A stretch of 64,000 nt of DNA from an uncultured Synergistales bacterium (GCA_905233725.1 CAJOEM010000001.1:2772-66771); one strand, 5' to 3'. Shown: positions 26,324 to 53,317, counted from the first letter of the stretch. The notes: generated by a model not told the origin, from the letters alone. A program made the numbers and translations.

Positions 26324-27214
26324 TCACAAGAGCAAGAATAATCCCGAAATTATTACGCTGCAAATTATGAATGGCAAAATCGTCAAGAGATTCATGATTA
26401 GCATTTTCGCAGCAAGTTTTCGTTCGAACATTCCAAAGTAATAGCCGGCATTCTGTCGCAAAATTCTCGTCACAGTTCCCAACGCACTGCCCAATATCAA
26501 CATGAATACGGCCTGACTGACGCTCAAATCTCCGCGCTCAAGACTTCCTCCAGCCAATGCCAACGCCGTCGTCACGTGAGCAATCGACCCAGCAGCAATC
26601 GCCCAAGCCGAAATCGGAATCATGCTTCCTGAAAATCCCCCGACAAATTCTTCGAGCCAATCATTCATGAACGGGATTAATGCGTAAGTCAGAGCGAAGA
26701 ATATCCAGCAGAAAACAAGATTCTTGAACACGTACTTGCAAAATCTCGCGAAATTCCTGTTTTGTGATCCTGGCAGATTCGCAAAATCTCCGGAACTCGA
26801 AAAATCCCCGCTTCTCAAAAATATAAATGCAACGAAAAATCTCGCAGCACTCCGCAATAACAAGAACACCGCGAAAATTCCACCGGCTAATCCAGCAATG
26901 CTGACAGACAGCGCAAATGTCGAGAACCATCGCTTCAGATATGACGGGAACGGCAGCATTAACACCGACCAAATCGCATCACGTTCGGAAATAATATTTT
27001 TCTCAAGAGCAGACGCAATTATTCCGGCACCGGTCCTGGATGAGCCAGCACTAAGCGAAATCGCGAGAGCTGCAACCGGATTCACGCGCAGAAATCTTGA
27101 CATGAATCGCAAAATTCTCTCGGAAATCCCTGAACGCATGATTAACTCACCGGCAATACTCCCGAATATTACGTCAAGAGTCAATCGCAACTCACCAGAT
27201 ATTAATCCAGACAT
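26324..27214 (-). CDS. Polytopic membrane protein, possibly with a nucleoside-recognition (Gate) domain
   Basis: Hydrophobic throughout. The start is taken at ATG 27214 (MSGLISGELRL...), because the longer ORF overlaps the cbiL-like gene by >200 nt. Confidence 0.35.
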   Translation of the reverse strand: MSGLISGELRLTLDVIFGSIAGELIMRSGISERILRFMSRFLRVNPVAALAISLSAGSSRTGAGIIASALEKNIISERDAIWSVLMLPFPSYLKRWFSTFALSVSIAGLAGGIFAVFLLLRSAARFFVAFIFLRSGDFSSSGDFANLPGSQNRNFARFCKYVFKNLVFCWIFFALTYALIPFMNDWLEEFVGGFSGSMIPISAWAIAAGSIAHVTTALALAGGSLERGDLSVSQAVFMLILGSALGTVTRILRQNAGYYFGMFERKLAAKMLIMNLLTILPFIICSVIISGLFLLL

Positions 27215-27924
27215 TTTACAAATTTTTTCGACATTTTTGACAATAGCAAGATCGACAAGTATGCGTGAATATTTTCCAGAGCAGCTTCCCCGTGAAAAAT
27301 TTTCTCGTTCGGCAATCCAGCGTAATCTACTCGCGAAATTTCCCAGAGTTCCGGATTGATTATCTCGCGAATGTTTCCCAGAGCCGTCGGTTTGTAAATC
27401 GCAACACAATCCGAATTTTCCAGAACACGCGCAATTTTTGAAACTTCAGCAGTCCCCGGAATAATTGCCAAGATCTCGTCACCAGCAGCCAAGAATTTTC
27501 TCGCACACGCAGCCGCAACTGAATGAGCCGAAATCCCAGGAATTAATCTTAATTCGAAATCCAGATTCAAATCCCGCAAACTTTCGCACAAATATTTTCC
27601 GGTCGAGTACAGACTTGAATCGCCAATCACAGCAAAGAAAATTTCACTCGCAACTTGCAATTCATGGCGCAAATTCTCGAGTTGAGACTTGATCAGCGAG
27701 TTTCGTTCGGAAATGTCCAGAATCATCGGGAACGTTAGCGTGTGATATTTCAGCTCCGGAACATGCGCAAGAATTATTTTCTCAGCAACGCCGCTTTTCT
27801 CAGGATTAGCTCTCGGCAGCAAGACCAAATCCGATCTTTTCGCCGAATTCACAGCTGCAAAACTCACGAGTTCAGGATTGCCAGTTCCAAGTCCAGCGAT
27901 TGTTAATATTTTTGCTTTTCCCAT
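27202..27924 (-). CDS. cbiL: Precorrin-2 / cobalt-factor II C20-methyltransferase (tetrapyrrole methylase family, CbiL/CobI-like)
   Basis: ILTIAGLGTGNPELVSFAAV, VIGDSSLYST, IPGISAHSVAAA and LAIIPGT, in the order expected for CbiL. Confidence 0.7.
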   Translation of the reverse strand: MGKAKILTIAGLGTGNPELVSFAAVNSAKRSDLVLLPRANPEKSGVAEKIILAHVPELKYHTLTFPMILDISERNSLIKSQLENLRHELQVASEIFFAVIGDSSLYSTGKYLCESLRDLNLDFELRLIPGISAHSVAAACARKFLAAGDEILAIIPGTAEVSKIARVLENSDCVAIYKPTALGNIREIINPELWEISRVDYAGLPNEKIFHGEAALENIHAYLSILLLSKMSKKFVKCLD

Positions 27925-28008
27925 AATCTACACCACCTGCAATTTTTCCCGTATAATATCAGATATTGTTTTATTATTTTGAATCACGAATTTTAATCAT
28001 AAAGGAGT

Positions 28009-28416
28009 GTGTTTGATTTGATAACGATATTCGTATTCATTGCGTTGACGATATTCCTGTTCGGCTTGTATCAGTGGGCACGAGGCGGTGCGACGCTGTG
28101 GCAGATTTTCCAGCTCAAACGCTCTGAGAAAGGCTTGTCACGTGATGAGCGTAAAAAACTTGAGAACCAGGTTCAGCAACTCGAACGTGCGACAGATTCG
28201 ATTTTGCGAACGAGTTTCAGGTTGGTAGCATTTTTGGCGGTGTTTCTGTGGGCGGTTTTGGGAGTTACGATTGTGCTTGACATGATGGGCATTGATTGGG
28301 TTGGCAGATTGACGACGAAGGCTCAGCAATACTGGTCGCAGAATCAGGAAAATACAAGTCTGACTCAGAATCGCTCGAATATGTTGCGCAACATGGGCAA
28401 TAATTTGCGGAAATAA
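28009..28416 (+). CDS. Small two-TM membrane protein with a charged coiled-coil loop, function unknown
   Basis: The ORF has two hydrophobic helices flanking KRSEKGLSRDERKKLENQVQQLER. It is first in a same-strand gene string. Confidence 0.35.
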   Translation: MFDLITIFVFIALTIFLFGLYQWARGGATLWQIFQLKRSEKGLSRDERKKLENQVQQLERATDSILRTSFRLVAFLAVFLWAVLGVTIVLDMMGIDWVGRLTTKAQQYWSQNQENTSLTQNRSNMLRNMGNNLRK

Positions 28417-28496
28417 TATCTTGCAAAACGTTGTAACGAGTGCAAAAATATATTATTCGAGTATTATTCGAAACAGAATAGAGGGGATTTGTAGAT

Positions 28497-29144
28497 TTGA
28501 TTAAGATAATGATTTTCGACCACGACATGACAATCGTAGACTCGAGTTACGCAATCATGGAAGGCTTCAATTCCGTTGCGCGCCACGAAGGATTGCCCGA
28601 AGTCGATCACGATAAAGTCATGGAATATATCGCGACACCGATTCCGGTTTTTTGCGAGGGTTTGCTCGGTGAATATCGTCCGGAATGGGTCAGGCTTTAC
28701 AGGGAAAACAGCGTTGAAATTGAGAAAAAGCTGATTCGCCCGTTTTACGACACAGTCCCGACAATGAAGAAATTGCACGAAATGGGAATCATTCGCGCGG
28801 TTGCATCAAATCGAGAATTTCCGAGCCGTGCCATGGTTCACAGTGGGATTGCGAAATATTTTGACGTTATCGTCGGAGCTGAAGAACCGTGGGGACATTT
28901 GCCGTACAAGCCTAATCCGGCTATGATTAACGAGATTCTCGAACATTTCAGCATAAATCCTGATGAGGCGGTTTACATCGGAGATTCTGACGTTGATATT
29001 CTCACTGCGACTGCTGCAGACGTTCGCGGCATTGGGATCACGCTGGGGAATTTTGACGCGCAGGATTTCAAGAAGCTCGGAGCCTGGAAATGTGTGAATA
29101 ATCTGAGTGAACTCGTGAAAATTGCTCAGGACGAGAACGCATAA
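28497..29144 (+). CDS. HAD-superfamily hydrolase (phosphoglycolate-phosphatase-like)
   Basis: Motif I FDHDMT (DxDxT), motif II ASNR (S/T), and motif IV GDSDVD. Confidence 0.75.
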   Translation: MIKIMIFDHDMTIVDSSYAIMEGFNSVARHEGLPEVDHDKVMEYIATPIPVFCEGLLGEYRPEWVRLYRENSVEIEKKLIRPFYDTVPTMKKLHEMGIIRAVASNREFPSRAMVHSGIAKYFDVIVGAEEPWGHLPYKPNPAMINEILEHFSINPDEAVYIGDSDVDILTATAADVRGIGITLGNFDAQDFKKLGAWKCVNNLSELVKIAQDENA

Positions 29145-29146
29145 AC

Positions 29147-31426
29147 ATGCCTGTAAATAATTTCGCCAGCAATCTAATAAGCGAAACCAGCCCGCTCGCA
29201 GCATACGGAGAATATTCGGAAGAAAACAGTGTAGCAAAATCTCGTCAGGTTATCGTGCCTGTAAATCATTTAGCAGGTTCGATCAGCCCGCATTTGTTGC
29301 AGCACGTGAATAATCCTGTCGGCTGGTATCCGTGGTGTCAGGAAGCTTTCGAAGTCGCAAAACGTGAGGATAAGCCGGTGTTCCTGTCGATTGGCTATTC
29401 GTCGTCGCATTGGTGTCACGTCATGGAGCGAGACTGCTTTCGTGATCAGGAAGTTGCGCAATTAATGAACGACGCGTGTGTTCCGGTGAAAATTGACGCT
29501 TCAGAACGCCCGGATTTAGACGCGCTATTCATGGAAGTTTGCAAATTACAGAATGGAAGCGCAGGTCACCCGTTGAGCATATTCTTGACACCTGAGGGAT
29601 TGCCGTTTTTCTCGACTACTTGGCTGCCGAAACGAACCGCTGGACAGATGCCCGGCATAACGGATATTATTCCAAGAGTGAAATGGCTCTGGTTAATGCA
29701 ACACGATGATATTGACCGAGCTGCGAAAGAATTATCGACAATGATTTCCGAGCGTGTGAAAAATATCTCGGGTTCAAAAGTCGGCACGAAGATCAAGAGA
29801 TTTTCTGCTCGTGAAGCGTTCGAGAATTTGCGCAAGAATTTCGATGTTCGATGGGGCGGTTTTGGGATTGCGCCGAAATTTCCGGATTATGTGAAATTGC
29901 TTTTTCTGCTGAAATATGCTGACGAGAATAAAGACTCGTGGTTTCATTCGACGGGTCAGGAGCGTTACGATGCTTTCACGATGATTGACATAACGCTGCG
30001 TAGAATGTGGCGCGGTGGCATTCATGATCATTTGGGCGGAGGTTTTTCGAGATACTCGACTGATGAACGATGGCTTGTGCCGCATTTCGAGAAATTTCTG
30101 AGTGATCAGGCTATGATGTTATTTACGGCTGCGTTGGCTCAGGAGTTAAAGCAAAATGCCTTTTACAAGTTATTGGCGGAAGACATAGTTTTTGCAGTTA
30201 CGCGGGATTTTTGTGATTCGGATTCGCATTCACAGGGCTTCAGGAGCGCGATTGATGCTGACACGATTGAAGGCGAGGGGCGCTATTATCTTTGGACAGA
30301 GGACGAGATCAAAGCTGTTTTGCCTGAAGGTGACGTTGGATTATTCTGCGCGGCGTATGCAGTCTTACCCAGCGGAAATTTTGGCAATGAAGTTGCTGGC
30401 TCTCAGTTAAGTTATAATATTTTATACGAGGCTTCAACTGTGACGGAACTTGCACGGCGGCATAATATCAAAGGTGCGGAAGTCGGCGTGAGATTGTCAG
30501 CTTGCCGGAAATTATTGCTTGATGCGCGTGACAGGCGACCAGCTCCGATGTATGACGATCAAGTTCTGATGGATTGGAACGGCTTAATGATCGGCGCGTT
30601 GGCGAGAGCTTCAGTTGCGTTTGAGAATCCGGATTGGCGAGCGATGGCTGAACGAACGGCGCTGTTTTTGCAGAAGGTATTATATGACTCGAAGGCGAAT
30701 ATCTGGCACAGGCGCTGGCGTTTGGGAAAATCTGGCGTAGATGCGCTCGCTCAGGATCATGCGGCGTTGCTCTGGGGCGTTATGGAACTGTACAAAGCCT
30801 CGAACTCAGCTGGAGCAGGTGAGAAGCAGTTGAACGACTGGCTCAAGTACGCGCAGAATTTGGCGGATAATTTGCTCGAAAAATTCTGGGACGAGAAATC
30901 CGGCGGGCTTTTCGCGACGTATGCGAATGAACAGAACGTTTTCCTGAGATACAAGTCTGCGATTGATGTCGCGATTCCCTCGGCAAATTCTCTGGCAGTG
31001 ATTGCTCTGAACGAACTTGCGCAAGTTCTGAACCAGAAGCTCGAAACGTCCGAGAATGCGAAGAAATACGCCGATTACGCGAAGAAAATTCTGGATTGTT
31101 TCTCTCGGGAATTGACGGAAAATCCTGGTGAATATTTGTCGCTGATAGTTGCAAATTCGCTATGGAAACCGTTCAAGCAAAAACAAGAGCCGAAACCCGC
31201 AAAGATTCTCACGGACGAGGAATTGAATCGTGAGGAAGAATTTGAAATTACGAATCCGGAATCTCAAGCCCAAGTTCAGCCGGAACGCGAATCACGACGC
31301 GCAAGGTCTTCACGACGAGCAAATTCTGAGAGCAGATCGCCTTCGGATAGATCAGAAAGATCAGATAGACCGGAGAGACCGGAACGCAGAACGAGATCAC
31401 CGCGCAGAAGTTCACGTGCGAGATAA
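29147..31426 (+). CDS. YyaL/DUF255 thioredoxin-domain protein with an (alpha/alpha)6 epimerase-like domain and an Arg/Ser/Glu-rich C-terminal tail
   Basis: NPVGWYPWCQEAFEVAKREDKPVFLSIGYSSSHWCHVMERDCF is the DUF255 signature, with SHWC where I recall CHWC. The tail is ...ESRRARSSRRANSESRSPSDRSERSDRPERPERRTRSPRRSSRAR. Confidence 0.72.
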   Translation: MPVNNFASNLISETSPLAAYGEYSEENSVAKSRQVIVPVNHLAGSISPHLLQHVNNPVGWYPWCQEAFEVAKREDKPVFLSIGYSSSHWCHVMERDCFRDQEVAQLMNDACVPVKIDASERPDLDALFMEVCKLQNGSAGHPLSIFLTPEGLPFFSTTWLPKRTAGQMPGITDIIPRVKWLWLMQHDDIDRAAKELSTMISERVKNISGSKVGTKIKRFSAREAFENLRKNFDVRWGGFGIAPKFPDYVKLLFLLKYADENKDSWFHSTGQERYDAFTMIDITLRRMWRGGIHDHLGGGFSRYSTDERWLVPHFEKFLSDQAMMLFTAALAQELKQNAFYKLLAEDIVFAVTRDFCDSDSHSQGFRSAIDADTIEGEGRYYLWTEDEIKAVLPEGDVGLFCAAYAVLPSGNFGNEVAGSQLSYNILYEASTVTELARRHNIKGAEVGVRLSACRKLLLDARDRRPAPMYDDQVLMDWNGLMIGALARASVAFENPDWRAMAERTALFLQKVLYDSKANIWHRRWRLGKSGVDALAQDHAALLWGVMELYKASNSAGAGEKQLNDWLKYAQNLADNLLEKFWDEKSGGLFATYANEQNVFLRYKSAIDVAIPSANSLAVIALNELAQVLNQKLETSENAKKYADYAKKILDCFSRELTENPGEYLSLIVANSLWKPFKQKQEPKPAKILTDEELNREEEFEITNPESQAQVQPERESRRARSSRRANSESRSPSDRSERSDRPERPERRTRSPRRSSRAR

Positions 31427-31459
31427 TATAGATCATGCGAAAAAAATTTTTAGGAGGTA

Positions 31460-33601
31460 TTGAAGTTGAAGTTTTTTAACAGGGCTGCAAGTGTAATGAT
31501 TATGCTTGCAATTTTTGTGGCGTTGAGTTTTGGCACAGCTGAGGCTCTATACGAGTTTCAGAACGTATACAAGACTGGCGGCCTAAACACTCAATGGATG
31601 GTAACGCGAGGTTCAAGAACAGCCGGAGATAACGTTTTCGAAGATAGCGGCGGCTCATCGACTTTCAACCCGATGGTGATTTCCGGAGATTTGATAAATC
31701 GCGCTAACGTCCGCAGATTGTACGTTTCAGGCGGCAAGGGCGAGAATTCGGATTTGCAGGTCGAGAAAATTTTCCTGGCAATCTCGAAAAACGAACGCAC
31801 TAAAGAAGAACAGAACAAGTTAGCAATAACTTTCTACGCACCACCGACTGATGCCGGAGAACCAGTTACACCCGAAGTGAATGTGGAATGGCGGGATAAT
31901 CGTGATTTCGCGATAATCAAAAATGATATTTCCACTGAAACACCCGTTTTGAACGGCATGACCGGCAGAACGTTCGAGTTCACGTTTAATGGCTACACAG
32001 CTTGGAATTACGGCAGCTACATAGGCAATATAAAGTTCCAGCAATCACCCAGTGAAGAAGGCAACCCGTTGAGAGATTCGCAGACTCAGGAGATCCCGTT
32101 AATCCTGGCATATGTCTACGGACACGAAGCAGATACTCTTGAGCCATTAAGATTCCGGACAATTTTGCGCGATAACGTAACTCAGGAAATCGTCGGCACA
32201 AATAAATTCACGTGGGCAGTTCGTAACGTTGAGAGTGGCGGTGAGGCTGAGAAAATCGTCGGCAAGTTTGATCAGGCTACTAAAGGCAGCGATACTCAGT
32301 GGGTGTTTACGCCCCTGAGAACGATTGACGGTTCAGAAAGTGCGAATCAGTACACGCTCACGACGCGAATTATAAACAGAACTGGTGCGAGATATGACAC
32401 GTACAACAGCTCTGGGAAAAAATCGTATTTAGCGGCCTCGAAATGGTATTTTGACATTACGCCTACAACTGAGTCAACATACAAAGAATTAACGCAGCCG
32501 TTTATACTGGATCAGCGAAGTCATATTGCTCCGGGACTTGCGACGGTTTACGAGACAGCGTTTGATTTATCTCCCGAGCGTATTAACACGGTTATGTGGC
32601 TTGATTGCGTCGATCCGAAAGGCAACGGCGGATTGGGCTTGACGGTGAATTATCGCAACGTTAGCGGCGTGATCATGAATACAGTCGATGGCGATTTGTA
32701 CAACGATGAGTCTGGTCCAGTTCCGTTTAACAGGCTTACGGCATTCATTCACAGACCGATTGACACGAATTTTTTGACTAAAGTAGCTGATGCTGTAAGA
32801 AATGATAACGCTGGTGTACTCAAGACAATCAGAACTCAAACGACACCGGGGAATTTTATAGCTCAGGGCGATATTTCCGGCAACGAGCTGAACTACGACG
32901 AGATAATCCGAGCATTCACGCTCAAGAAAGCTATTCCGTCGAATTTGCGCGGCGATGATTATGAAGCTATGGTTCCGCTGCTTGTTACGTTTAACATTCC
33001 GTTTGGCTACAGGAATACGGGAACATGGGTCAATGACATGCTCTGGTCATGGTACAAGAACGGCGAAGGTGACGATGATCTTGTGAGCTTGTTCCTGCAG
33101 AATTTCAGCGTCGGATTGCTCAGCACGGTCAATGTTGATAATACGCGAAGATACTGCAATTTGCGCGAGGAACTTTCACTTGATGATTACAAAGACCAGA
33201 TTAAAATATTCATGGACGAAGACAGGCACGTAATCACAATCAGCTTTATCATAATGTTAATGGACGGCACGGCAACTCAGGGAAAACCTACGATCAGACT
33301 TGTTGAAGATTCCGGAACTAATCGCAGCAACAAGTTCATGATCGTTCGTGATGGCAAAGCTGACGACGAATGGAACTTGACATTCTACGTAGCACCGGCG
33401 AATTTCCAGCCCGTCGATGAGAATCTTGCTCCTGAAGATAATAACAATCGCGGTTCATGGAGAGACGACGATTACGAGGACGAAGTTGTTTACACAGGCG
33501 GCGGCAATGGCGGCAGCAGTGGTTGTGTCGCAAATTCCGGCTTGAGCTACGTGTTGGTTTTGGGTCTTGCGTTGTATGTCTTGCGCAGAAAAGGAGCATA
33601 A
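31460..33601 (+). CDS. Secreted/surface protein of unknown family with a Synergist-CTERM-like sorting tail
   Basis: Signal peptide (...IMLAIFVALSFGTAEA). No domain I can recognise. C-terminus GGGNGGSSGCVANSGLSYVLVLGLALYVLRRKGA. The likely start is the second TTG at 31466 (8 nt after GGAGG). Confidence 0.6.
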   Translation: MKLKFFNRAASVMIMLAIFVALSFGTAEALYEFQNVYKTGGLNTQWMVTRGSRTAGDNVFEDSGGSSTFNPMVISGDLINRANVRRLYVSGGKGENSDLQVEKIFLAISKNERTKEEQNKLAITFYAPPTDAGEPVTPEVNVEWRDNRDFAIIKNDISTETPVLNGMTGRTFEFTFNGYTAWNYGSYIGNIKFQQSPSEEGNPLRDSQTQEIPLILAYVYGHEADTLEPLRFRTILRDNVTQEIVGTNKFTWAVRNVESGGEAEKIVGKFDQATKGSDTQWVFTPLRTIDGSESANQYTLTTRIINRTGARYDTYNSSGKKSYLAASKWYFDITPTTESTYKELTQPFILDQRSHIAPGLATVYETAFDLSPERINTVMWLDCVDPKGNGGLGLTVNYRNVSGVIMNTVDGDLYNDESGPVPFNRLTAFIHRPIDTNFLTKVADAVRNDNAGVLKTIRTQTTPGNFIAQGDISGNELNYDEIIRAFTLKKAIPSNLRGDDYEAMVPLLVTFNIPFGYRNTGTWVNDMLWSWYKNGEGDDDLVSLFLQNFSVGLLSTVNVDNTRRYCNLREELSLDDYKDQIKIFMDEDRHVITISFIIMLMDGTATQGKPTIRLVEDSGTNRSNKFMIVRDGKADDEWNLTFYVAPANFQPVDENLAPEDNNNRGSWRDDDYEDEVVYTGGGNGGSSGCVANSGLSYVLVLGLALYVLRRKGA

Positions 33602-33602
33602 C

Positions 33603-36600
33603 ATGAGAAAAATATTATTTCTCGCACTGGCTTTTGTTTTGCTGATTGTTTCGAGTGCAAGTGCGTTGGAATTGCCATCGTATTCTGGAACGAGATTGAC
33701 AAGTTCGGATATTAAAGCATACGTTGAGGATTTCTACAACGGAATATCTTTTGACGAAGAGCCTGAGATTGACAGCGAATTTTCTCTGACGGTTGCAGGT
33801 GCAAATATCAATGTTCCAAGTGCGTTGAACATTCCCTGCGATCTCGGAGCGTTCACGATTCATTACAAGATTTTGTCAGAGGACGTTTCAGGCGATGAGA
33901 CAGTTAATACTTACGTCGACACCAGCAAAGAAGTAAACATGATCATGATGCAGCTCGCGCTCGATTCGGGAACTTTCACTAAGGCTAACGGCTCAGATCG
34001 GCATTTTGTCGTGAATAATTCCGGAACACTCACTGTCAACAGCGGCGTTACTTTGGACGGAGGCGGCACTGGCGGAGGGATTAGATATAACGGCGGAAAT
34101 CTGGCTATCGAAGGCGTGACTTTCAACAACAATCACGCAGATAACGGCGGTGCGCTTTATCTTGGTTCCGGGACATCACTCATGCTCAACGGCAGCAACA
34201 CGTTCACGAATAACTCGGCTTCTGAATCAGGTGGAGCAATTTACAACGCTGGGACTCTGACATTCTCTGAGGCGATAACTTTTTCGAAAAACGAGGCTTC
34301 TGGCAATGACGGCGGCGCGATTTACAGTTCTGGAAATTTGACGTTTTCCGGGACAGCAAACTTCGACACGAACAAAGCTAACGGTTCAGGCGGAGGGATT
34401 TATAACGCGAGTACACTTACATTTGCAGATTCAGTTACGTTTAGCATAAACACAGCTTCAGGCGATGGAGGCGCGATTTACAGTTCAGGGATTGTCAGGC
34501 TCGTCGGGACTGATAACAAATTCACGACGAATACTGCGACAAATGGCAGCGGTGGTGCGATATATTACTCGGCAACGGGGTCTCTGGAATTTGGCAGCAA
34601 TTACACGTTCAATGGCAATAATGCGAGTGCCGATGGTGGCGCGGTGTATTCTCAGGTCAATGTGACGGTTAGTGGCGCGAATTTCACCGGAACTGGCAGT
34701 AATGCTCGCGGAGGAGCTGTATATTCAACCAAGACTGTGAACGTATCAAGCGGAAATTTCGTGAGTTTCAACACGTCTGAATCAGGCGGCGCAATTTACG
34801 CGGACGGAGCAGTTAATATCGAAGGCGGAAGTTTTTCGGAATGCACATCGGGGTCAGGTGGCGCTATTTACTCGAACGGACTTGTGACGATTTCGAGCGG
34901 AGATTTTTCTCAGTGTGGAGCGACGAATTTCGGCGGAGTGATTTACGCGAACAGTTCAGCGAAACCAAATCTGAAAATCACGGGCGGAACTTTCACAAAG
35001 GAGACTGCGAATTATGGCGGAGTTGCGTTCTCAGCTAGCGGCGTTGATATAGAGGGCGGAACTTTCGGAGGCTCGAATACTGACAAGAACTCAGCATTGA
35101 ACGGCGCAGTAATTTACGCGTCTGGTGACGTTGATGTTTCGGGCGGAACTTTCGACAGCAATGAGAGCACGGGCAATAATGATTCTGGTTCCGGCGGCGG
35201 AGTTATTTTTGCTGCGGGAGAAATTGGCGTTTCGGGCGGAACTTTCACGAGGAATACAGCTGATTCAGCAAAAGGCGGTGTATTTTACGGATTGTCGAAC
35301 ATAGATATTTCGGGCGGAACTTTCGGCGGCTCAAAAGCTGACAAGAATTCAGCTTCATCAGGCGGCGTAGTTTACTCGGATTCTGATGTTAATATCAGTG
35401 GCGGAGAATTTGTCTCGAACGATGCGACAGGAACTGCAACTCGAAGCGGTGGTGGAGCAATTTACGCTTCTGGCGATGTTTCAATCACAGGTACTCCGAA
35501 TTTTGCGGGAAACTCGTCTTCAAGATACGGCGGTGCAATTTACACGAACGGAGACCTCACGTTGAACGGCAATATAATTTTCGAGGGCAACAAATCCGAG
35601 TCGTACGGTGGAGCGATTTACGCGCTTGGAACTATCAGCGGCAACACGTCGAGTTACTTGCCAATTTTCACTGGTAACGTAGCAGAATCTCGCGGTGGAG
35701 CAATCTACACGGATGCAAATATCACGCTTGAAAACGTATCGTTTGACAATAACAGTTCAAATGAAGGCGGCGGTGGTGCAGTTTACACGTCTAAGAAAGC
35801 TACATTCACAAATTCTACTTTCACGAACAATATTGCAGCAGGTGATGACGCGCGTGGAGGAGCAATTTTCGCAGACGGCAGCGTTTCTATAACAAGTTCT
35901 ACACTTACGAACAATTCAGCAATCAGTGACGGTGGCGCTATTCACACTGGCCTTGATGGTACAAGTTCAATCACGAAATCAGTTTTCAAGAATAATATCG
36001 CAAGTGAGACAGGCATCGGCAGCGGTGGAGCAATTTATCTTGACAACTCGAATCCTCAGCATAATTTCACGATCACAGACAGCATTTTCCTGAATAATCG
36101 CGCTCAAGCTCAGGGTGGTGCGTTACGAATCGACGGAAATTCTGTCACGATTACACGCTGCTATTTCTACGAGAACCAGAGTGATTCGGCTATGAATGGC
36201 GGTGCTGCGTACTTGGCTGCTGCAAAAATCGTTGTCGTAAATTCCACGTTCTACAAGAATACTACGCTTGGCGGTGATGGTGGAGCATTGTATCTTGATG
36301 ACCTGTCGGACCCGGGTGACGCTACGACTTCAGCGGCACTCCTGGTGAACACGTTCGTTGGGAATAATTGCGGAGCTGGCAGAGGCGGTGCGCTTTATGT
36401 TACACGAGAGAACGAGACTGAGATGTTCGGAAATTTGCTTGTTGGCAACGAAGCCCCTGAACGTTCAGGCAAAGACGTTTTTGTCGAACAGGGCAAACGC
36501 ATCAGAAGCCGCGGCTATAATATTTTGACTAACATCGGAGTTTTGACGAGTGGCTCAGCAAGTACGGTCAACTGGAAAAATACATCGTTCGTAATCGGAA

Positions 36601-38129
36601 ATTATGCGAAAGACGAAATTACAGGATATGACGTTACGTATTTCTTCGAGTACAGTGGCGAGGAAATCGTGCGTGACACAAGCCCTACGATCAAAATCGG
36701 AGCAAATGATACAGAGACACTTTACGCGCTGCACTTGAATTACGGTGACGGAGTTTCGAACGTTGCTCTGGGATTCGTTCAGAATGACGCAGCAAAAGAA
36801 CAATTCAGGGCGAAAAATATCACGCAATACACGGACGCTCTCGGAAATTCCCGCCCGGCAAGCTACAACTGGGACGCAGGTTCACGCCAGTTATCGAACG
36901 GCATCAGTTCCCCGGAAGAAGAAGAGGTGAAGAACACAAATCTCATCACGGCGATAAAGATCAGCGGACTTCCTGTAACTTTGCGGCGCGTTGGTCAGAC
37001 TGCGAGTTTGGTTGTGTATGGACTTGACGCTGGCGGAAATGTAATCTCGCGAGACATGAACGTGACTTGGACTTATGATGATTACTTCGTGAGAATTTAT
37101 GACGATAACACGATTGTTGCTATGAACTTGACAACACAGGAACCCGGCGGTTACACGGAAATTACAGCTACGGCGGCAACTCCGGCTGGCGATCGTGTTG
37201 ACACACGGCGAATCAAAATCACAGAGGCAGCATCTCAGGGACGTTACTCGAATATTAGCAGCAAGTATCTCGAAGAAATCGGCGATTTTAACGCATCAAG
37301 CACGTATTCAAGTGTAGCGATTGGAAATTCTGCGGCAAAATCTTCAACGCTTGATCTGGTTCAGGCTGCGAGTTTCCAAACGGCGTTTCAGGAGACGTAC
37401 CCTGGTGCAGCAACACTCGTAACTCAGGTCGAGAATATCGGCGACGATGTAGATTTCGCGGTCGAAGCAAATTCTGACGTTGTAGATTACTCGGATTCTG
37501 AAAAATTCGTTGCGGCAAAAGACGGCATTGATATTATGATCAACGGACGCAGCAAAGGTGATGTGTTGCCGGTCGAATATTCCTGGATTTACACGCGCGA
37601 AGAATTGCAGAACTTGTTGGGCACGAAATACTCGCCTGAAAATCTCAACGCTGAAAATCTTCAGGACGTTCTGAGAGTCGCATTCAAAACGGATAATTCT
37701 GTTTATGTTCCTGTGATTGGCTCGAACGCTGTTTCACTTCAGGACGCTTTCGCAGCAAACTCACTCTCGATTGACACTGATAACGAAGATAACCCGGGTG
37801 GAGCTGTAATTCGATTCACGGCTTATCTCGCAAATATCGCGTCAAACAAAACTCAACTCGTAAATTCCACGGCGAATAACAAGCTGCTGATTGTCCCTGA
37901 CGGAATTGATTCAGATACAAGAATCGCTGGCACAATGTTCATGCTTCAGAAAAAACTCGATGTTGCAAATTCTGGCGGCGGCAGTCATGACGGTTCTGGA
38001 GACAGAACTAATGACGGAAGCAGCGGCGGAAATTCCATGAGCAAATCCGGCGGTGGCGGTGGCTGCAATAATTTCGCGATGAGTGGATTACTGGCACTGT
38101 TGTTCTTACTCAGGAAATCTAGACGGTAA
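33603..38129 (+). CDS. Giant (1508 aa) Pmp-repeat parallel beta-helix surface protein with a Big_2-like domain and a Synergist-CTERM-like tail
   Basis: Signal peptide MRKILFLALAFVLLIVSSASA. There are dozens of FxxN...GGA(I/V/L)Y repeats (e.g. FTNNSASESGGAIY). An Ig-like segment is present (ITAIKISGLPVTLRRVGQTASLVVYGLD...). C-terminus SGGGGGCNNFAMSGLLALLFLLRKSRR. RBS AAGGAG at 33591, and the ATG is 1 nt after the upstream stop. Confidence 0.7.
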   Translation: MRKILFLALAFVLLIVSSASALELPSYSGTRLTSSDIKAYVEDFYNGISFDEEPEIDSEFSLTVAGANINVPSALNIPCDLGAFTIHYKILSEDVSGDETVNTYVDTSKEVNMIMMQLALDSGTFTKANGSDRHFVVNNSGTLTVNSGVTLDGGGTGGGIRYNGGNLAIEGVTFNNNHADNGGALYLGSGTSLMLNGSNTFTNNSASESGGAIYNAGTLTFSEAITFSKNEASGNDGGAIYSSGNLTFSGTANFDTNKANGSGGGIYNASTLTFADSVTFSINTASGDGGAIYSSGIVRLVGTDNKFTTNTATNGSGGAIYYSATGSLEFGSNYTFNGNNASADGGAVYSQVNVTVSGANFTGTGSNARGGAVYSTKTVNVSSGNFVSFNTSESGGAIYADGAVNIEGGSFSECTSGSGGAIYSNGLVTISSGDFSQCGATNFGGVIYANSSAKPNLKITGGTFTKETANYGGVAFSASGVDIEGGTFGGSNTDKNSALNGAVIYASGDVDVSGGTFDSNESTGNNDSGSGGGVIFAAGEIGVSGGTFTRNTADSAKGGVFYGLSNIDISGGTFGGSKADKNSASSGGVVYSDSDVNISGGEFVSNDATGTATRSGGGAIYASGDVSITGTPNFAGNSSSRYGGAIYTNGDLTLNGNIIFEGNKSESYGGAIYALGTISGNTSSYLPIFTGNVAESRGGAIYTDANITLENVSFDNNSSNEGGGGAVYTSKKATFTNSTFTNNIAAGDDARGGAIFADGSVSITSSTLTNNSAISDGGAIHTGLDGTSSITKSVFKNNIASETGIGSGGAIYLDNSNPQHNFTITDSIFLNNRAQAQGGALRIDGNSVTITRCYFYENQSDSAMNGGAAYLAAAKIVVVNSTFYKNTTLGGDGGALYLDDLSDPGDATTSAALLVNTFVGNNCGAGRGGALYVTRENETEMFGNLLVGNEAPERSGKDVFVEQGKRIRSRGYNILTNIGVLTSGSASTVNWKNTSFVIGNYAKDEITGYDVTYFFEYSGEEIVRDTSPTIKIGANDTETLYALHLNYGDGVSNVALGFVQNDAAKEQFRAKNITQYTDALGNSRPASYNWDAGSRQLSNGISSPEEEEVKNTNLITAIKISGLPVTLRRVGQTASLVVYGLDAGGNVISRDMNVTWTYDDYFVRIYDDNTIVAMNLTTQEPGGYTEITATAATPAGDRVDTRRIKITEAASQGRYSNISSKYLEEIGDFNASSTYSSVAIGNSAAKSSTLDLVQAASFQTAFQETYPGAATLVTQVENIGDDVDFAVEANSDVVDYSDSEKFVAAKDGIDIMINGRSKGDVLPVEYSWIYTREELQNLLGTKYSPENLNAENLQDVLRVAFKTDNSVYVPVIGSNAVSLQDAFAANSLSIDTDNEDNPGGAVIRFTAYLANIASNKTQLVNSTANNKLLIVPDGIDSDTRIAGTMFMLQKKLDVANSGGGSHDGSGDRTNDGSSGGNSMSKSGGGGGCNNFAMSGLLALLFLLRKSRR

Positions 38130-38155
38130 ATTATAATTCGTGATAGCAATCTTGT

Positions 38156-38183
38156 GGCGGGTGTAACAGCCCGTCATTTTTTT
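38156..38183 (+). terminator. Rho-independent terminator after the surface-protein operon
   Basis: Stem GGCGGG / CCCGTC (one G-U pair), followed by A and a T7 run. Confidence 0.6.
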
Positions 38184-46318: not shown

Positions 46319-47953
46319 ATGAAAAAAAATCTCGCTTCAAAATTACTTCTCACGCTATTGGCATTACTCGCAGCATCGACGGCTTTTGCTGGAATAACCG
46401 TGAAAAATTACGTCGACGGTGATGTGATAATCGTACTCAAAAATCCAGATTCAAATCCAGATTCAAATTCAACGCTGACACTTGCATCTGCAGGCGAAAT
46501 TTCTGGAGCGAAAATCAGGCGCACTTTCGCAAATTTATCGCGCGCAAAAAATCAGACGTTCGCACTAATTCACTCCGATAATCTCTCGACTCAGGAATTA
46601 ATCAGCGAGTTGCAAAATAATCCCGACGTGATCGCTGCAAGTCCGAATTACAAAGTCCGCGCTGCAAAATTGCCAAACGATCCTGTAATTCCATCGGATT
46701 CAGACGACAGACTCTGGTCTCTCAAGAATATTAACGCTCCGGAAGCCTGGGAAATTTCAACAGGTTCAGATGACATTTACGTCGCAGTAATCGATACAGG
46801 AATCGATCACACACATCCGGATTTGAGCGGCGTAATTGCGACTGAATACGCTTACAACACAGTCGATAATAATTACGATGCTGCTGATATTCAGGGACAC
46901 GGAACTCACGTTGCAGGCACAATCGGAGCAAGAGGCAATAATAATCTCGGGCTTGTTGGCGTGAACTGGAACGTGAAAATAATTCCTGTGCGCGTTATGG
47001 ACAGCGATGGTTATGGCACTCTCGAGGACGTAATCGAAGGCGTAGATCACGTTATAGATCTCTTGCAAAAGAATCCAAACATGAAGCTCGTAGCTATGAA
47101 CATGTCGCTTGAATATTACGCTTACACTGTGCCGTCCGAACGTCAATTAAAAAGCGATGCTCTTTGGCTGTCATTCAAAACTCTCGATGACATGAACAGA
47201 ACTGTAATGGTCGTTGCGGCGGGAAATATCAGCGTTGAAGTTGGGAAACCTGTTCCGAGAACGATTAACGACAGCGGCTATATTATCCCGAAGAACTCGT
47301 ACGTTTACCCGGCATCATTCACTGGTCTGAAAAATCTTATCTCAGTTTCGGCGACGAATCAATCCGGGGAACTCACGAGCTACACGAACACGAACGCGAC
47401 AATCTCAGCACCGGGCGGCGATTATTACGGCGACGGCAGTTTAATCTTGAGCACGTGGCCAGCTAACATGTACGATTCTGGAAGATACACTCTCGATGAC
47501 GGAACGACAGTCTGCGAAATGCAGGGAACTTCTATGGCGACACCGCACATCGCTGGAGCAATCGCTCTATTACAATCAGCAGCGGGAATTTCCGGCAAAA
47601 CACGCTCAGCATATCAGCTCAAGATGGCGTTACTAGGCGGCTGTGACCCGAATTATTCTGCAAGCTCAAATTCATACGCGAAAATTTCTCAGGGCGGCGA
47701 CAATTTCAAGTTGAATTTACAGGACGCGATCGAATATCAAGAACAACGCATGAGTGATCCGTCGAACGACATAAGCGACACGGACGCAGTTTCAACGGAA
47801 TTTGCTGAGGATTTCGACAATACGCAATACGATTATGATTACGATTACAATATTCCACGTGCCAGACATTCCAGCAGCGGTGGCGGTTGTAATTCAGGTT
47901 TCGGGATAATACTCGCAGGGATTTGCCTTCTCGCGAGAAAAATACGCAAATAA
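46319..47953 (+). CDS. Subtilisin-like S8 serine peptidase with a Synergist-CTERM-like sorting tail
   Basis: Signal peptide. Catalytic triad contexts VAVIDTGIDHTHPD, HGTHVAGTIG and GTSMATPHIAG. C-terminus HSSSGGGCNSGFGIILAGICLLARKIRK. Confidence 0.85.
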   Translation: MKKNLASKLLLTLLALLAASTAFAGITVKNYVDGDVIIVLKNPDSNPDSNSTLTLASAGEISGAKIRRTFANLSRAKNQTFALIHSDNLSTQELISELQNNPDVIAASPNYKVRAAKLPNDPVIPSDSDDRLWSLKNINAPEAWEISTGSDDIYVAVIDTGIDHTHPDLSGVIATEYAYNTVDNNYDAADIQGHGTHVAGTIGARGNNNLGLVGVNWNVKIIPVRVMDSDGYGTLEDVIEGVDHVIDLLQKNPNMKLVAMNMSLEYYAYTVPSERQLKSDALWLSFKTLDDMNRTVMVVAAGNISVEVGKPVPRTINDSGYIIPKNSYVYPASFTGLKNLISVSATNQSGELTSYTNTNATISAPGGDYYGDGSLILSTWPANMYDSGRYTLDDGTTVCEMQGTSMATPHIAGAIALLQSAAGISGKTRSAYQLKMALLGGCDPNYSASSNSYAKISQGGDNFKLNLQDAIEYQEQRMSDPSNDISDTDAVSTEFAEDFDNTQYDYDYDYNIPRARHSSSGGGCNSGFGIILAGICLLARKIRK

Positions 47954-50270: not shown

Positions 50271-51398
50271 TCAGATTTTCGCATTGACACATTCCGCCCA
50301 AAATTTCGCAGCATTCTCGCTACCCATGAGATTTTTCACACGCATCAAGATCCTGTCCGTTTTTAATTTCACGTCTGGATTATTCAAGTACGCGCACAAT
50401 TCATGAATAATATTCTCAGGCGTGACAGAATCGCAAATTAATTCCGGATAGACTGCTTCTCCCGCCAGAAAATTCGGGATCGAAATATTCTTCACGTGAA
50501 CGAGGCTTCTCAGGAGCAAATACGTCAGCTTCTTCATGTTATAAATCACGACCATGAACTTGTTCAGCAACATCGCTTCGACCGCAACAGTCCCGGAAAC
50601 TCCGACTACAGCACACGAACCGGACATCAAATCGCGTCCCTCACCCTGCCAAATCTCGAAACCAGAACTTGCGACACGTTCACGAATATCACGCGCCAAA
50701 TTCTCGGATAAGCCACTCGAAACCGAAAATACCGGAACATAATTTCTCTCGCGCAAAATCTCAGCCGTACGCAGCAAAATCTCCAGATGAAACTTTATCT
50801 CATTCTTGCGGCTGCCGGGCATTAACGCTATAACTCTCGCATTGGCGAATCTTTCGCGAAATGTGCCGGGTATATCAAAATTGCGAAAATCATTCACCAA
50901 CGGGTGCGCTTTCCAGTACGAATCAATCCCGTGACGCTTCAAAAACTCATGCTCAAACGAGAACAACGGCAGGCAAAAATCAAAATCACGCTTCAAATTC
51001 TTCATTCGGCCAGCACGCCATGCCCAAACCGTCGGGGGAATTAACGAAACAATCTTGCCATGATAACCAGACTTGCGCAAATGTTTCGCCAGCAGCAGGT
51101 GAAAATCCGGACTATCGATCAATATTACAGCTTCAGGTTCTCGGCGCAAAATTTCTCGCGTAATATCATCTCGTAATCGCAAAATCCTCGGTAACGCCGG
51201 AATCACCGCAAAAATTCCCATTAATTTCAAGTTCTCGTAACTCCAGAGCAAGTCACAACCAGCTGCAACGCTTTTGGGACCGCACATGCCGAAAACATGA
51301 CCGGCAAATTCCGGACGCAATCTCAAAAATTCACTCACAAATGCGCTCGCGTACAAATCACCGCTGACTTCACCGCACGACACGAAAATTCCTCGCAT
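50271..51398 (-). CDS. lpxB: Lipid-A-disaccharide synthase LpxB
   Basis: CGEVSGDLYAS, LMGIFAVIP, IDSPDFHL and PTVWAWRAGR are collinear with E. coli LpxB motifs (GETSGD, VMGIVEVL, IDAPDFN, PSVWAWR). Confidence 0.8.
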   Translation of the reverse strand: MRGIFVSCGEVSGDLYASAFVSEFLRLRPEFAGHVFGMCGPKSVAAGCDLLWSYENLKLMGIFAVIPALPRILRLRDDITREILRREPEAVILIDSPDFHLLLAKHLRKSGYHGKIVSLIPPTVWAWRAGRMKNLKRDFDFCLPLFSFEHEFLKRHGIDSYWKAHPLVNDFRNFDIPGTFRERFANARVIALMPGSRKNEIKFHLEILLRTAEILRERNYVPVFSVSSGLSENLARDIRERVASSGFEIWQGEGRDLMSGSCAVVGVSGTVAVEAMLLNKFMVVIYNMKKLTYLLLRSLVHVKNISIPNFLAGEAVYPELICDSVTPENIIHELCAYLNNPDVKLKTDRILMRVKNLMGSENAAKFWAECVNAKI

Positions 51399-51410
51399 TA
51401 TAAAATTCCC

Positions 51411-52214
51411 CTAAATACCAAAAACAGCAATATTATATTTCTCAGCAAGCGCAAAAAATTTCTCGGGTTCAAGTATAATCGTACGTCCAGCTTCCACAGC
51501 CAGGCACGTCAAACCAGATTTCCGCATGTTCTCAAGAGTGCGCGTTCCTGTCGTAGGCAAATCGTAGCGCAAATCCTGAGTCTTCTTCATCATCTTGATT
51601 AATACGCCATGTTTCACAAGATTTCCGGCTCTTTGAATCATTGCGTCTGTGCCTTCCATTGCTTCAACTGCGACAACTGCTCCGTCAGCTACAACTATTG
51701 CTTGCCCAAACGAACACGGCAGCGTCACTTGCAAAATCTCACAGCCATATCTCACGTCATACATTTCGCGCTCACTTGGAACTCGTTGCGTCAAATTTCC
51801 TTTAGGGGCGAGAAATTCCGGGATTATTTGCCAGTACGGAATCACTTTCACACCGTTAGATTCAAATTCACTAACAATCGCTCCCAACAGTGAGTGATCA
51901 TCGTGCAAGCTTTTTCGCAAAACTTTCCGCGTAACTGAGTCAAACAGCATCGACGAGAGAAAATATATCGTCTTTTTGTGAATGCCGCCTGCCATAATTA
52001 ATGCGTCTGCACCCCAAGCTTTCACTTCACGAATCGCTCGACCCAACGCAGGTGTCCTGAACGACATGAACTTCTCAGAGTACAAACGCAAATCTTCAGA
52101 ATTATTGCAATTCGACATATTCATCGTAAAAATATTCTTGCCCTGCTCAGATAATTTTCTTGCAATCTCAACAGGCAAAACTCCATCGCCGGCAATCAAA
52201 ACTATCTTGTTCAT
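51411..52214 (-). CDS. lpxI: UDP-2,3-diacylglucosamine pyrophosphatase LpxI (DUF1009)
   Basis: IVLIAGDGVLPVEIA N-terminus and GQAIVVADGAVVAVEAMEGTDAMIQRAG...KKTQDLRYDLPTTG core. Located adjacent to lpxB. Confidence 0.72.
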   Translation of the reverse strand: MNKIVLIAGDGVLPVEIARKLSEQGKNIFTMNMSNCNNSEDLRLYSEKFMSFRTPALGRAIREVKAWGADALIMAGGIHKKTIYFLSSMLFDSVTRKVLRKSLHDDHSLLGAIVSEFESNGVKVIPYWQIIPEFLAPKGNLTQRVPSEREMYDVRYGCEILQVTLPCSFGQAIVVADGAVVAVEAMEGTDAMIQRAGNLVKHGVLIKMMKKTQDLRYDLPTTGTRTLENMRKSGLTCLAVEAGRTIILEPEKFFALAEKYNIAVFGI

Positions 52215-53317
52215 ATTCTGTCAACTCGCCACGAGAAATATAACGCTACGATTAAAAACAATACATTCGGTCCCCAACCTGCAACCACAGCCGGCAAATT
52301 TCCAGCTTCACCCAACGCCCTACACAGCGACATCACAACGTAATACGCGAACACGATTAAGACGCTAATTCCGAAACCAACGCCGCTGCCACCGGAACGA
52401 CTTTTTCTCGACGCACCCAGACCAGTTCCCAAAACCGCCATGATTACGCACGCCCAGGGAACAGCCAATTTCAAATGAAACATCACCCATAATCGCGACA
52501 AATCCGTTCCCGTTGTCAAAGCCTGATTAATATAATCCCATAATTCATGCGCACTCATATCCGATGGCTTTCGAGTTGAACGCTGTAATTGTTCCGGAGA
52601 TAATTTCAGAGCGAGTCTTTGCCTCTCAAATCTCAAAAGCAAATTCACGTCTCCCTGAGAATTTACGTCATACATTCTGCCGTCTTCTATCCACCATTGA
52701 GAATTTCGCCATATGCCGCGCTGAGCTGTGAGTGTGTTCGATAACGCGCCAGTGTCATTAAATTCGTGCATCATGATCCCGTTCATGATACCTTTTTTCG
52801 TGTCGAGTTGATCAATATATAGCACGCGCTTTAATTTCTTGTTCTCCTCTTCGCGCAAGAAAACTTTTTCCTGAACGGCTACGGCTTGATTCTTGAGAAT
52901 CTCGTAACGCATTAATTTATCCGCAGCAACTGACGCAAACGGCACTATAGTCTCGTTAAACGCGAGCGCACCGATTGAGATCAATATCGAACTCAGCAAA
53001 ACTGGACGCAAAATTCTCGTGAACGGAATGCCAAGTGACTTCAGCGCGATCAGCTCACTTGACGAATTCAGGCCGGACATTCCCAACAACGTCGCCAAAA
53101 GTGAGGACATCGGTATCGTCATCACGACGACTTCCGGCAACCTGTAGAAAAACAATCGCACGACAACTCCCAAAGCAATCCCGCGCTCAATAATCAATCT
53201 CGCAGCCTGAAACAGCAAATCTCCGGCGACAAATATCAGCACGAATATCAACACTCCGAAGACAAACGGACCTGCTGTTGCTCCCAGAATCAATCTATCT
53301 AGTAATTTTGGCTTCAT
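52211..53317 (-). CDS. LptF/LptG-family (YjgP/YjgQ) LPS export permease
   Basis: 368 aa. The N-terminal helix pattern LLDRLILGATAGPFVFGVLIFVLIF, a periplasmic beta-jellyroll insert, and C-terminal TM helices are present. There is a 4-nt overlap with lpxI. Confidence 0.75.
   Translation of the reverse strand: MKPKLLDRLILGATAGPFVFGVLIFVLIFVAGDLLFQAARLIIERGIALGVVVRLFFYRLPEVVVMTIPMSSLLATLLGMSGLNSSSELIALKSLGIPFTRILRPVLLSSILISIGALAFNETIVPFASVAADKLMRYEILKNQAVAVQEKVFLREEENKKLKRVLYIDQLDTKKGIMNGIMMHEFNDTGALSNTLTAQRGIWRNSQWWIEDGRMYDVNSQGDVNLLLRFERQRLALKLSPEQLQRSTRKPSDMSAHELWDYINQALTTGTDLSRLWVMFHLKLAVPWACVIMAVLGTGLGASRKSRSGGSGVGFGISVLIVFAYYVVMSLCRALGEAGNLPAVVAGWGPNVLFLIVALYFSWRVDRI

Follow-up and report, generated by a model that had tools for sequence, protein, structure and literature searches.

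In a window of 64,000 nt from an uncultured Synergistales bacterium (GCA_905233725.1 CAJOEM010000001.1:2772-66771; the window is the whole stretch analysed, and positions are counted from its first letter), five open reading frames (ORFs) lie in a row on the + strand at 28018-38129, spaced 1-80 nt apart, and the last two encode large exported proteins, here called p713 and the PMP-repeat protein, whose C-terminal tails resemble the Synerg-CTERM sorting signal. The order is a small membrane protein, a HAD-IA family phosphatase, a YyaL-like protein, p713 and the PMP-repeat protein, with intergenic gaps of 80, 2, 33 or 39 (for the two possible starts of p713) and 1 nt as measured on the DNA. Shine-Dalgarno sequences are in place, among them AGGAGG 8 nt 5′ of TTG 31466 and AAAGGAG 6 nt 5′ of ATG 33603. 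The cluster ends at an intrinsic terminator (38154-38183, +) with a hairpin stem at 38154-38177 and a T-run; its folding energy is -19.2 kcal/mol (z = -3.0), a value that none of 200 shuffled sequences matches. A first reading of this DNA, made from the sequence alone (the sequence-only reading), had described this same-strand layout with its terminator, as well as Sec signals on both large proteins, and in these respects it was borne out.

Two exported proteins at a conserved position

The gene for p713 (31466-33601, +) is predicted to encode an exported, multi-domain beta-sandwich surface protein. The length first quoted, 713 aa, corresponds to an ORF that does exist when counted from position 31460, but the 711-aa form from TTG 31466, the start used in public gene calls, is likelier because of the AGGAGG placed 8 nt before that codon. 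The N-terminus, coded at 31466-31546 (+), is by eye a typical Sec signal peptide (MKFFNRAASVMIMLAIFVALSFGTAEA, then LYE) and forms a helix at residues 2-20 in the structural model. No Pfam, NCBIfam or Protein Data Bank (PDB) sequence match was obtained for p713. A family of 119 representatives emerged when 1.84 billion proteins were searched exhaustively with a profile, and all 61 genome loci related to p713 belong to Fretibacterium, Synergistaceae or Synergistales. The relatives come from ruminant guts, other sets of metagenome-assembled genomes and Fretibacterium fastidiosum, the nearest being found in the uncultured Fretibacterium sp. bin ERR1278103_bin.14 (92% identity), and a homologue search with the family alignment returned the three closest proteins only. 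Judged by these comparisons, p713 founds an unannotated family that has so far been seen in Synergistales genomes only.

Structure prediction and a Foldseek comparison had been suggested by the sequence-only reading, and both were carried out. A first AlphaFold2 (AF2) model based on a 10-sequence alignment was poor (pLDDT 54.8) and was superseded by a model based on 52 sequences (pLDDT 81.8, pTM 0.81), in which p713 is a chain of beta-sandwich domains with a C-terminal alpha/beta part. The description of p713 as a protein without recognisable domain thus holds for Pfam and NCBIfam but not for its structure, since the all-beta model is a confident one. Searched as a whole against the PDB, this model gave generic Ig-like/beta-sandwich matches only (query-normalised TM-score ≤0.14), so that no function can be transferred to p713. 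It could also be that p713 is an S-layer or major envelope protein, with the PMP-repeat protein as its accessory, as one might suppose for an exported, all-beta, multi-domain and lineage-specific protein with a membrane/lipid anchor signal. However, it has no SLH or known S-layer domain, its structural matches are the generic ones just mentioned, and the family has multiple copies per genome, with variable long forms, paralogues of 850-950 aa being found elsewhere in related genomes without a HAD, YyaL or PMP partner. Such a family resembles a repertoire of adhesins rather than one lattice protein, and we consider an S-layer role improbable.

The PMP-repeat protein (33603-38129, +; 1508 aa) starts 1 nt past the p713 stop and is likewise exported, with a Sec signal peptide, read by eye, coded at 33603-33665 (+; MRKILFLALAFVLLIVSSASA, then LEL). 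Its repeats, which are predicted to form a beta-helix, match TIGR01376 (Chlam_PMP; E 1.8e-52, in 15 stretches) and PF02415 (E 3.9e-32). The latter is the sole Pfam match of the protein, and its last 509 aa have none; a homologue search with these 509 aa returned nothing, the query itself being missed as well, probably because low-complexity words flooded the candidates. An orthologue is present in the related locus L007. Chlamydial Pmps are type V autotransporters in which repeats of the GGA(I/L/V) and FxxN types build a beta-helix adhesin passenger and a beta-barrel forms the C-terminus. The present protein shares this short repeat family (PF02415/TIGR01376), but where the Pmps have the barrel it has a sorting tail. 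Its identity as a type V autotransporter was rejected, as no beta-barrel domain is detectable and the C-terminus is a single transmembrane (TM) tail.

At least eight related genomes or contigs keep this gene order and its close spacing. The arrangement begins on the opposite strand with the genes for a tetrapyrrole-methylase-family protein (TP_methylase) and a membrane protein of 286 aa, followed by those for the small TM protein, HAD, YyaL, p713, PMP and DnaJ. It is kept in L007-L010, L012, L014 and two contigs with fused genes, and partially in L011 and L013, the spacing between p713 and PMP being -4 to +61 nt in six species. Between these genomes the two cargo proteins (p713 and PMP) are 26-30% identical, as against 43-74% for the neighbour proteins. 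Among near-identical strains (the window and L001-L006), the PMP gene shows 21 mismatches and 3 indels, as against 0-2 mismatches in neighbour genes. The divergence of the cargo, together with the strain-level changes in PMP, is the behaviour expected of exposed surface proteins at a fixed chromosomal position. In the PMP gene, the sequence of four independent assemblies breaks off or has an N-gap at about nt 1431-1530, within the repeats, and that of a fifth contig stops at nt 1816. Split calls of the gene in sister assemblies do not demonstrate phase variation, most of them being due to N-gaps or to the end of a contig.

C-terminal tails, shared module and gene fusions

Both large proteins end exactly as the sequence-only reading had quoted them: the p713 tail (33509-33598, +) consists of GGSSGC, VANSGLSYVLVLGLALYVL and RRKGA, and the PMP tail (38049-38126, +) of GGGGGC, NNFAMSGLLALLFLL and RKSRR. 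That reading had assigned the tail to these two proteins, and this has to be extended, as a pattern search of the window ORFs identified a third carrier in an exported S8 subtilase (46319-47953, +; 544 aa; PF00082, E 3.3e-46), with SSGGGC, NSGFGIILAGICLLA and RKIRK at 47873-47950 (+). The subtilase, the third cargo within 64 kb, has weak similarity to dentilisin PrtP and mycosin.

Synerg-CTERM has been described as a signal found in Synergistales only, in which a short Ser/Gly cluster closes with a single invariant Cys that directly adjoins the helix, and in which a Pro in the Leu-rich stretch of the helix is invariant (Haft 2023, doi 10.1101/2023.06.07.544157). The window tails are alike in standing at the extreme C-terminus, in a Ser/Gly signature that ends in a single Cys and passes directly into the helix (GGSSGC|VANSGLSYVLVL..., GGGGGC|NNFAMSGLLALL..., SSGGGC|NSGFGIILAG...), in the Arg/Lys cluster past the TM helix (RRKGA, RKSRR, RKIRK) and in the Synergistales lineage of the 61 related loci, and the Synerg-CTERM model TIGR04564 is the top sorting-signal model in NCBIfam for all three. 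They differ in their consensus and in lacking the Pro, and their TIGR04564 scores are 10.1-11.3 bits for p713, 11.6-15.3 bits for PMP and 9.6 bits for S8, the curated cutoff being 22.5 bits. The sequence-only reading had itself named this model as the check that could overturn its proposal, and formally the tails do not pass it. An assignment to MYXO-CTERM (TIGR03901, cutoff 20 bits) was rejected, because only the p713 tail scores (9.8 bits) and the phylum does not fit. The system of Myxococcus xanthus, with its CPBP-family intramembrane protease MrtX, Cys-dependent cleavage and surface delivery by a type II secretion system (T2SS), has in common with the window tails the three-part Cys tail logic, but belongs to another phylum and another hidden Markov model (HMM), and the MYXO-CTERM signal is the longer of the two, often with a second Cys.

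What these sub-cutoff scores mean can be judged from the family. Among the 128 p713-family sequences retrieved, 105 end in a poly-Gly/Cys/hydrophobic/basic tail, while the rest look truncated. The Cys is invariant in the 52-sequence family alignment, in two further alignments and in all 105 tails, and the consensus of the lineage is GGGGGC-[N/D]-x-G; a Pro follows the Cys in 33 tails and is absent from the other 72. When scanned singly, 54 of the 105 match TIGR04564 at E ≤ 1 (best 4.9e-9) and ten match MYXO-CTERM, and only eight about reach the TIGR04564 cutoff. A tail HMM of the lineage, built from the relatives and run on the C-termini of 282 window ORFs with composition correction off, gave 34.4 bits for PMP, 33.6 bits for S8 (whose range is 26.6-33.6 bits) and 15.0 bits for p713, the next best ORF reaching 6.5 bits. 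These three ORFs alone are set apart from the rest, which speaks against a chance origin of the tails. Since tails that pass the curated model and tails without Pro occur at the same position of one family, we conclude from sequence that Synerg-CTERM has diverged in this lineage and that the window tails are such a variant, though by the curated test they do not formally belong to it. The earlier assignment therefore stands in architecture, lineage and top-ranking model, and fails in the sub-cutoff scores and the missing Pro. The signal at this locus belongs to a variant of the system already described, is borne by unannotated cargo families, and does not represent an unknown system.

More than 90% of the tails of this Fretibacterium/rumen Synergistaceae clade, which includes the periodontitis-associated F. 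fastidiosum, escape the curated model, and as a consequence the surface proteome of the clade is annotated as 'hypothetical protein' (e.g. P0004, P0005 and P0007). A lineage-aware model would expose dozens of cargo proteins per genome. The Pro-less tails also show that the signal can do without the 'invariant' Pro, which bears on substrate recognition by MrtS-type CPBP proteases.

The likeness between p713 and the PMP-repeat protein extends beyond the tail. BLASTP of one against the other found nothing, and only a profile-profile comparison revealed a common module of about 85 aa: aligned with hhalign after removal of the tails, the two families match over 83 columns (probability 93.5%, E 2.4e-7). 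In p713 this pre-tail beta module lies at 33155-33430 (+; residues ~564-655) and is modelled at a pLDDT of ~83-97 over most of its length, falling at the C-terminal end, and in the PMP-repeat protein its homologue lies at 37731-38003 (+; residues ~1377-1467). The profile of the p713 family also extends to two PMP relatives, P0125 and P0127, which it matches at the C-terminus. The homology ahead of the tails implies that the shared cassette is larger than the tail. A similar concept is known from archaea, where the PGF-pre-PGF domain (TIGR04213), a small conserved domain, precedes PGF-CTERM in otherwise unrelated cargo; no sequence relation is claimed, and the enzyme class of PGF-CTERM, an archaeosortase, is different from that of Synerg-CTERM.

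In three family representatives from three lineages (P0036, P0039 and P0061; 1864-2247 aa), p713 and PMP are fused in frame, the p713 part, tail included, being joined directly to the hydrophobic core of the signal peptide of PMP, so that the basic cluster of the tail stands where the n-region of the signal peptide would be. Two of the three fusions were confirmed on contigs with the same synteny (L153, 6001-11595; L154, 4591-11334). From this arrangement we infer that the junction would take the topology of a membrane hairpin, resolvable by two proteases. In the L153 fusion, the second protein could also be initiated on its own from a TTG that lies in frame within the tail.

The candidate enzyme MrtS and the proposed route to the surface

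MrtS (NF040589), a CPBP-family glutamic intramembrane protease, is the predicted enzyme of Synerg-CTERM, a prediction that also includes a divergent T2SS (GspC/L/M/N; NF041616-NF041619) (Haft 2023, doi 10.1101/2023.06.07.544157). Its homologue, the myxosortase MrtX, cleaves MYXO-CTERM in a Cys-dependent manner, and surface display depends on it (Guo, Haft and Wall, mBio 2025, PMC11980579). With a published prediction for MrtS and experimental validation of MrtX, the statement that the processing enzyme is uncharacterised is outdated. It was correctly noted, on the other hand, that no CPBP, rhomboid or exosortase gene is encoded in the window, and none is found in the 8-10 kb beyond its ends either. 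Matches of a CPBP-motif regular expression in the window were false positives (e.g. GroEL and a radical-SAM protein), a Pfam scan of the unassigned membrane proteins of the window revealed no protease, and no T2SS-like genes were noticed in reading the translations of the window ORFs or found among the ten unassigned ORFs scanned against Pfam.

Related genomes do encode the enzyme. The gene at 9359-9907 of L068 is an MrtS equivalog with 253 bits against NF040589 (cutoff 130 bits); it is the sole CPBP gene recognised by a motif scan in about 0.9 Mb of related loci, and its position is 7 kb downstream of the gene for a p713-family protein that has no Pro in its tail. A metagenome scan seeded with this MrtS gave 104 relatives, and MrtS scores range overall from 242 to 261 bits (L071, 261; L075, 254; L077, 245). 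The GC content of the low-GC MrtS contigs (L071 and L075) is 0.44, that of the window 0.455. Because bona fide genes occur in related Fretibacterium contigs, MrtS can be regarded as present across the lineage, and thus in the same genus-level lineage as the window, although neither MrtS nor T2SS was seen in the window itself.

In about 18 Fretibacterium-like contigs (GC 0.35-0.67), mrtS is followed by a gene for a secreted protein of about 350 aa that is conserved at 41-69% identity; this gene overlaps mrtS or lies within about 100 nt of it in most contigs (e.g. L075, 8844-11577; L068, 7957-10994). A SurA/PrsA-like peptidyl-prolyl isomerase (PPIase) gene stands 5′ of mrtS on the opposite strand wherever upstream sequence exists. 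The ~350-aa protein, for which no Pfam match and no PDB sequence relative were found, may assist the sorting system as an accessory factor.

We favour, at a probability of roughly 0.7, the reading that p713 and the PMP-repeat protein are a partnered, fast-evolving and Sec-exported surface pair with diverged Synerg-CTERM tails, processed by an MrtS encoded elsewhere in the genome. The host is a diderm, gut-associated, Fretibacterium-like member of the Synergistaceae, and the pair combines the multi-beta-sandwich p713 with an adhesin-like protein of predicted beta-helix fold. Both carry the same cassette, made up of the ~85-aa beta module, a G/S/N-rich linker, the invariant Gly-Cys, a membrane helix and the Arg/Lys cluster. 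By analogy with MYXO-CTERM and MrtX, the exported protein would be held in the inner membrane by its C-terminal helix, the tail Cys would probably be modified with lipid, MrtS would cut just past this Cys, and the T2SS would deliver the protein to the surface of the cell, to be anchored there by the modified Cys. The two genes appear to be translationally coupled, which would allow synthesis in fixed proportion, and their products probably act jointly, perhaps in a complex.

Several points weigh against this reading. All three window tails remain under the TIGR04564 cutoff (9.6-15.3 vs 22.5 bits) and lack the Pro that was called invariant. The p713 tail is weak even on the lineage HMM, with 15 bits uncorrected and 3.4 bits, within the noise, once corrected, so that its status rests on its orthologues. 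No gene for MrtS or a T2SS is present in the 64-kb window or 8-10 kb past each end. MrtX is the only enzyme of this kind that has been tested experimentally and MrtS never has been, lipidation of the Cys is unproven even for MYXO-CTERM, every fusion rests on one metagenomic contig, and spacing is the sole basis for inferring co-transcription in the cluster.

Some of the same facts could be accommodated if the tails were plain, uncleaved C-terminal anchors that tether the proteins to the inner membrane facing the periplasm, with no sorting enzyme involved; the tails do fail the curated cutoff, no processing enzyme is encoded in the window or its flanks, and nothing in the analysis shows cleavage. 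A plain anchor, however, has no use for an invariant Cys set directly between a poly-Gly stretch and the helix, yet this Cys is present in all 105 tails, and for some relatives the tail exceeds the TIGR04564 cutoff by a wide margin (the best at E 4.9e-9). The presence of MrtS across the lineage also speaks against mere anchoring, and large PMP-repeat, adhesin-like proteins that diverge fast fit surface exposure. Simple anchoring therefore seems unlikely to us. It is about equally unlikely that the Pro-less tail constitutes a separate sorting class, served by an enzyme other than MrtS or by other chemistry. That only 8 of the 105 tails reach the cutoff and 72 have no Pro, and that MrtS was not found beside the cluster, would agree with such a class, but tails that pass and tails without Pro occur on orthologues and paralogues at the same alignment position and so form a continuum. 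Moreover, in L068 a bona fide mrtS has a Pro-less cargo gene at a distance of 7 kb, and no other type of sorting enzyme came up in the ~0.9 Mb motif scan, which sought CPBP motifs only.

A bolder version of the preferred reading, MrtS-dependent display of a partnered pair, can be put forward tentatively, as possible rather than probable. p713 and the PMP-repeat protein might be two halves of one surface machine that is made as a polyprotein in some lineages, where tail and signal peptide would together form a membrane hairpin, the Arg/Lys cluster doubling as n-region, to be cut by MrtS and signal peptidase into two separately anchored proteins. The ~85-aa module would in that case be a handle for the Synerg-CTERM/T2SS pathway, and the 350-aa neighbour of mrtS possibly the missing accessory factor.

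The current picture of the mechanism is unchanged by these findings. What they add is a conserved and sometimes fused p713-PMP pair, a module shared ahead of the tails, a gap in the curated model and the dispensability of the Pro, and the pair, the fusions and the module provide testable handles on Cys-type C-terminal sorting outside Myxococcus.

Upstream genes of the cluster and its surroundings

The first gene of the cluster (28018-28416, +) encodes a small membrane protein of 132 aa with two hydrophobic segments and without family assignment; GTG 28009 is an alternative start giving 135 aa, and the public gene call is the 132-aa form. Orthologues with 43-52% identity occupy the same position in L007, L009, L010 and L012. 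The HAD-IA family phosphatase (28497-29144, +; 215 aa; PF13419, E 1e-29) has sub-threshold matches to phosphoglycolate phosphatase and PpaX, and its orthologues in synteny are 47-67% identical. The YyaL-like DUF255 thioredoxin-fold protein (29147-31426, +; 759 aa), whose start codon lies 2 nt past the HAD stop and which is also syntenic in related loci, matches PF03190 (Thioredox_DsbH; E 9.7e-60) above the gathering score (201.7 bits, cutoff 27), and its six-hairpin part gives a faint match to PF07221 (GlcNAc 2-epimerase-like; 20.9 vs 23.4). Its C-terminus is extended by about 80 Arg/Ser/Glu-rich residues (31184-31423, +) ending in …RESRRARSSRRANSESRSPSDRSERSDRPERPERRTRSPRRSSRAR, an extension that we take to be unusual for the YyaL family; the L007 orthologue has a similar basic tail. 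As judged from spacing, the small membrane protein, HAD and YyaL genes are probably co-transcribed.

The sequence-only reading had seen in HAD and YyaL a maturation pathway for the tail, for instance for modification of the Cys. The order small TM-HAD-YyaL-p713-PMP is indeed tight in at least eight genomes or contigs despite a cargo identity of 26-30%. But the flanking TP_methylase, Na/H exchanger and DnaJ genes are equally conserved in position, so that general synteny, or shared transcription, explains the linkage better. Reading of the translations by eye revealed no evident signal peptide or membrane segment in either protein, whereas the tail Cys would be at the outer face of the inner membrane. 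In addition, the S8 cargo and about 50 loci with long-form paralogues bear the tail without HAD or YyaL neighbours, and published phylogenetic profiling reported neither family (Haft 2023). The proposal thus found no support, and we regard it as very unlikely. HAD and YyaL appear to be cytoplasmic, and none of the three upstream proteins appears linked to tail processing.

5′ of the cluster, the divergent intergenic region (27925-28008, +) contains a perfect TATAAT at ~27952-27957 and an AAAGGAG ribosome-binding site and is a possible promoter; a promoter scan was uninformative (28 matches vs 16.5 expected). A terminator-like hairpin lies inside the region coding for the p713 signal peptide (31486-31510, +; 11 pairs, then ATTTTTGTGG) and is probably there by chance, although it stands right at the start of the cargo genes. 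The divergent neighbours at 26324-27924 (-) are the tetrapyrrole-methylase-family gene (PF00590, public gene call) and the gene for the 286-aa polytopic membrane protein, for which no Pfam or NCBIfam match was found; both keep their position beside the cluster in all relatives examined. Elsewhere in the window, LptA/LptC-like, LpxB-like, LpxI and LptF/G genes are located at 672-1547 and 50271-53317, the LpxB-like assignment coming from reading of the translation only. These lipopolysaccharide (LPS) genes point to an outer membrane, which is the setting in which T2SS-dependent surface sorting would make sense.

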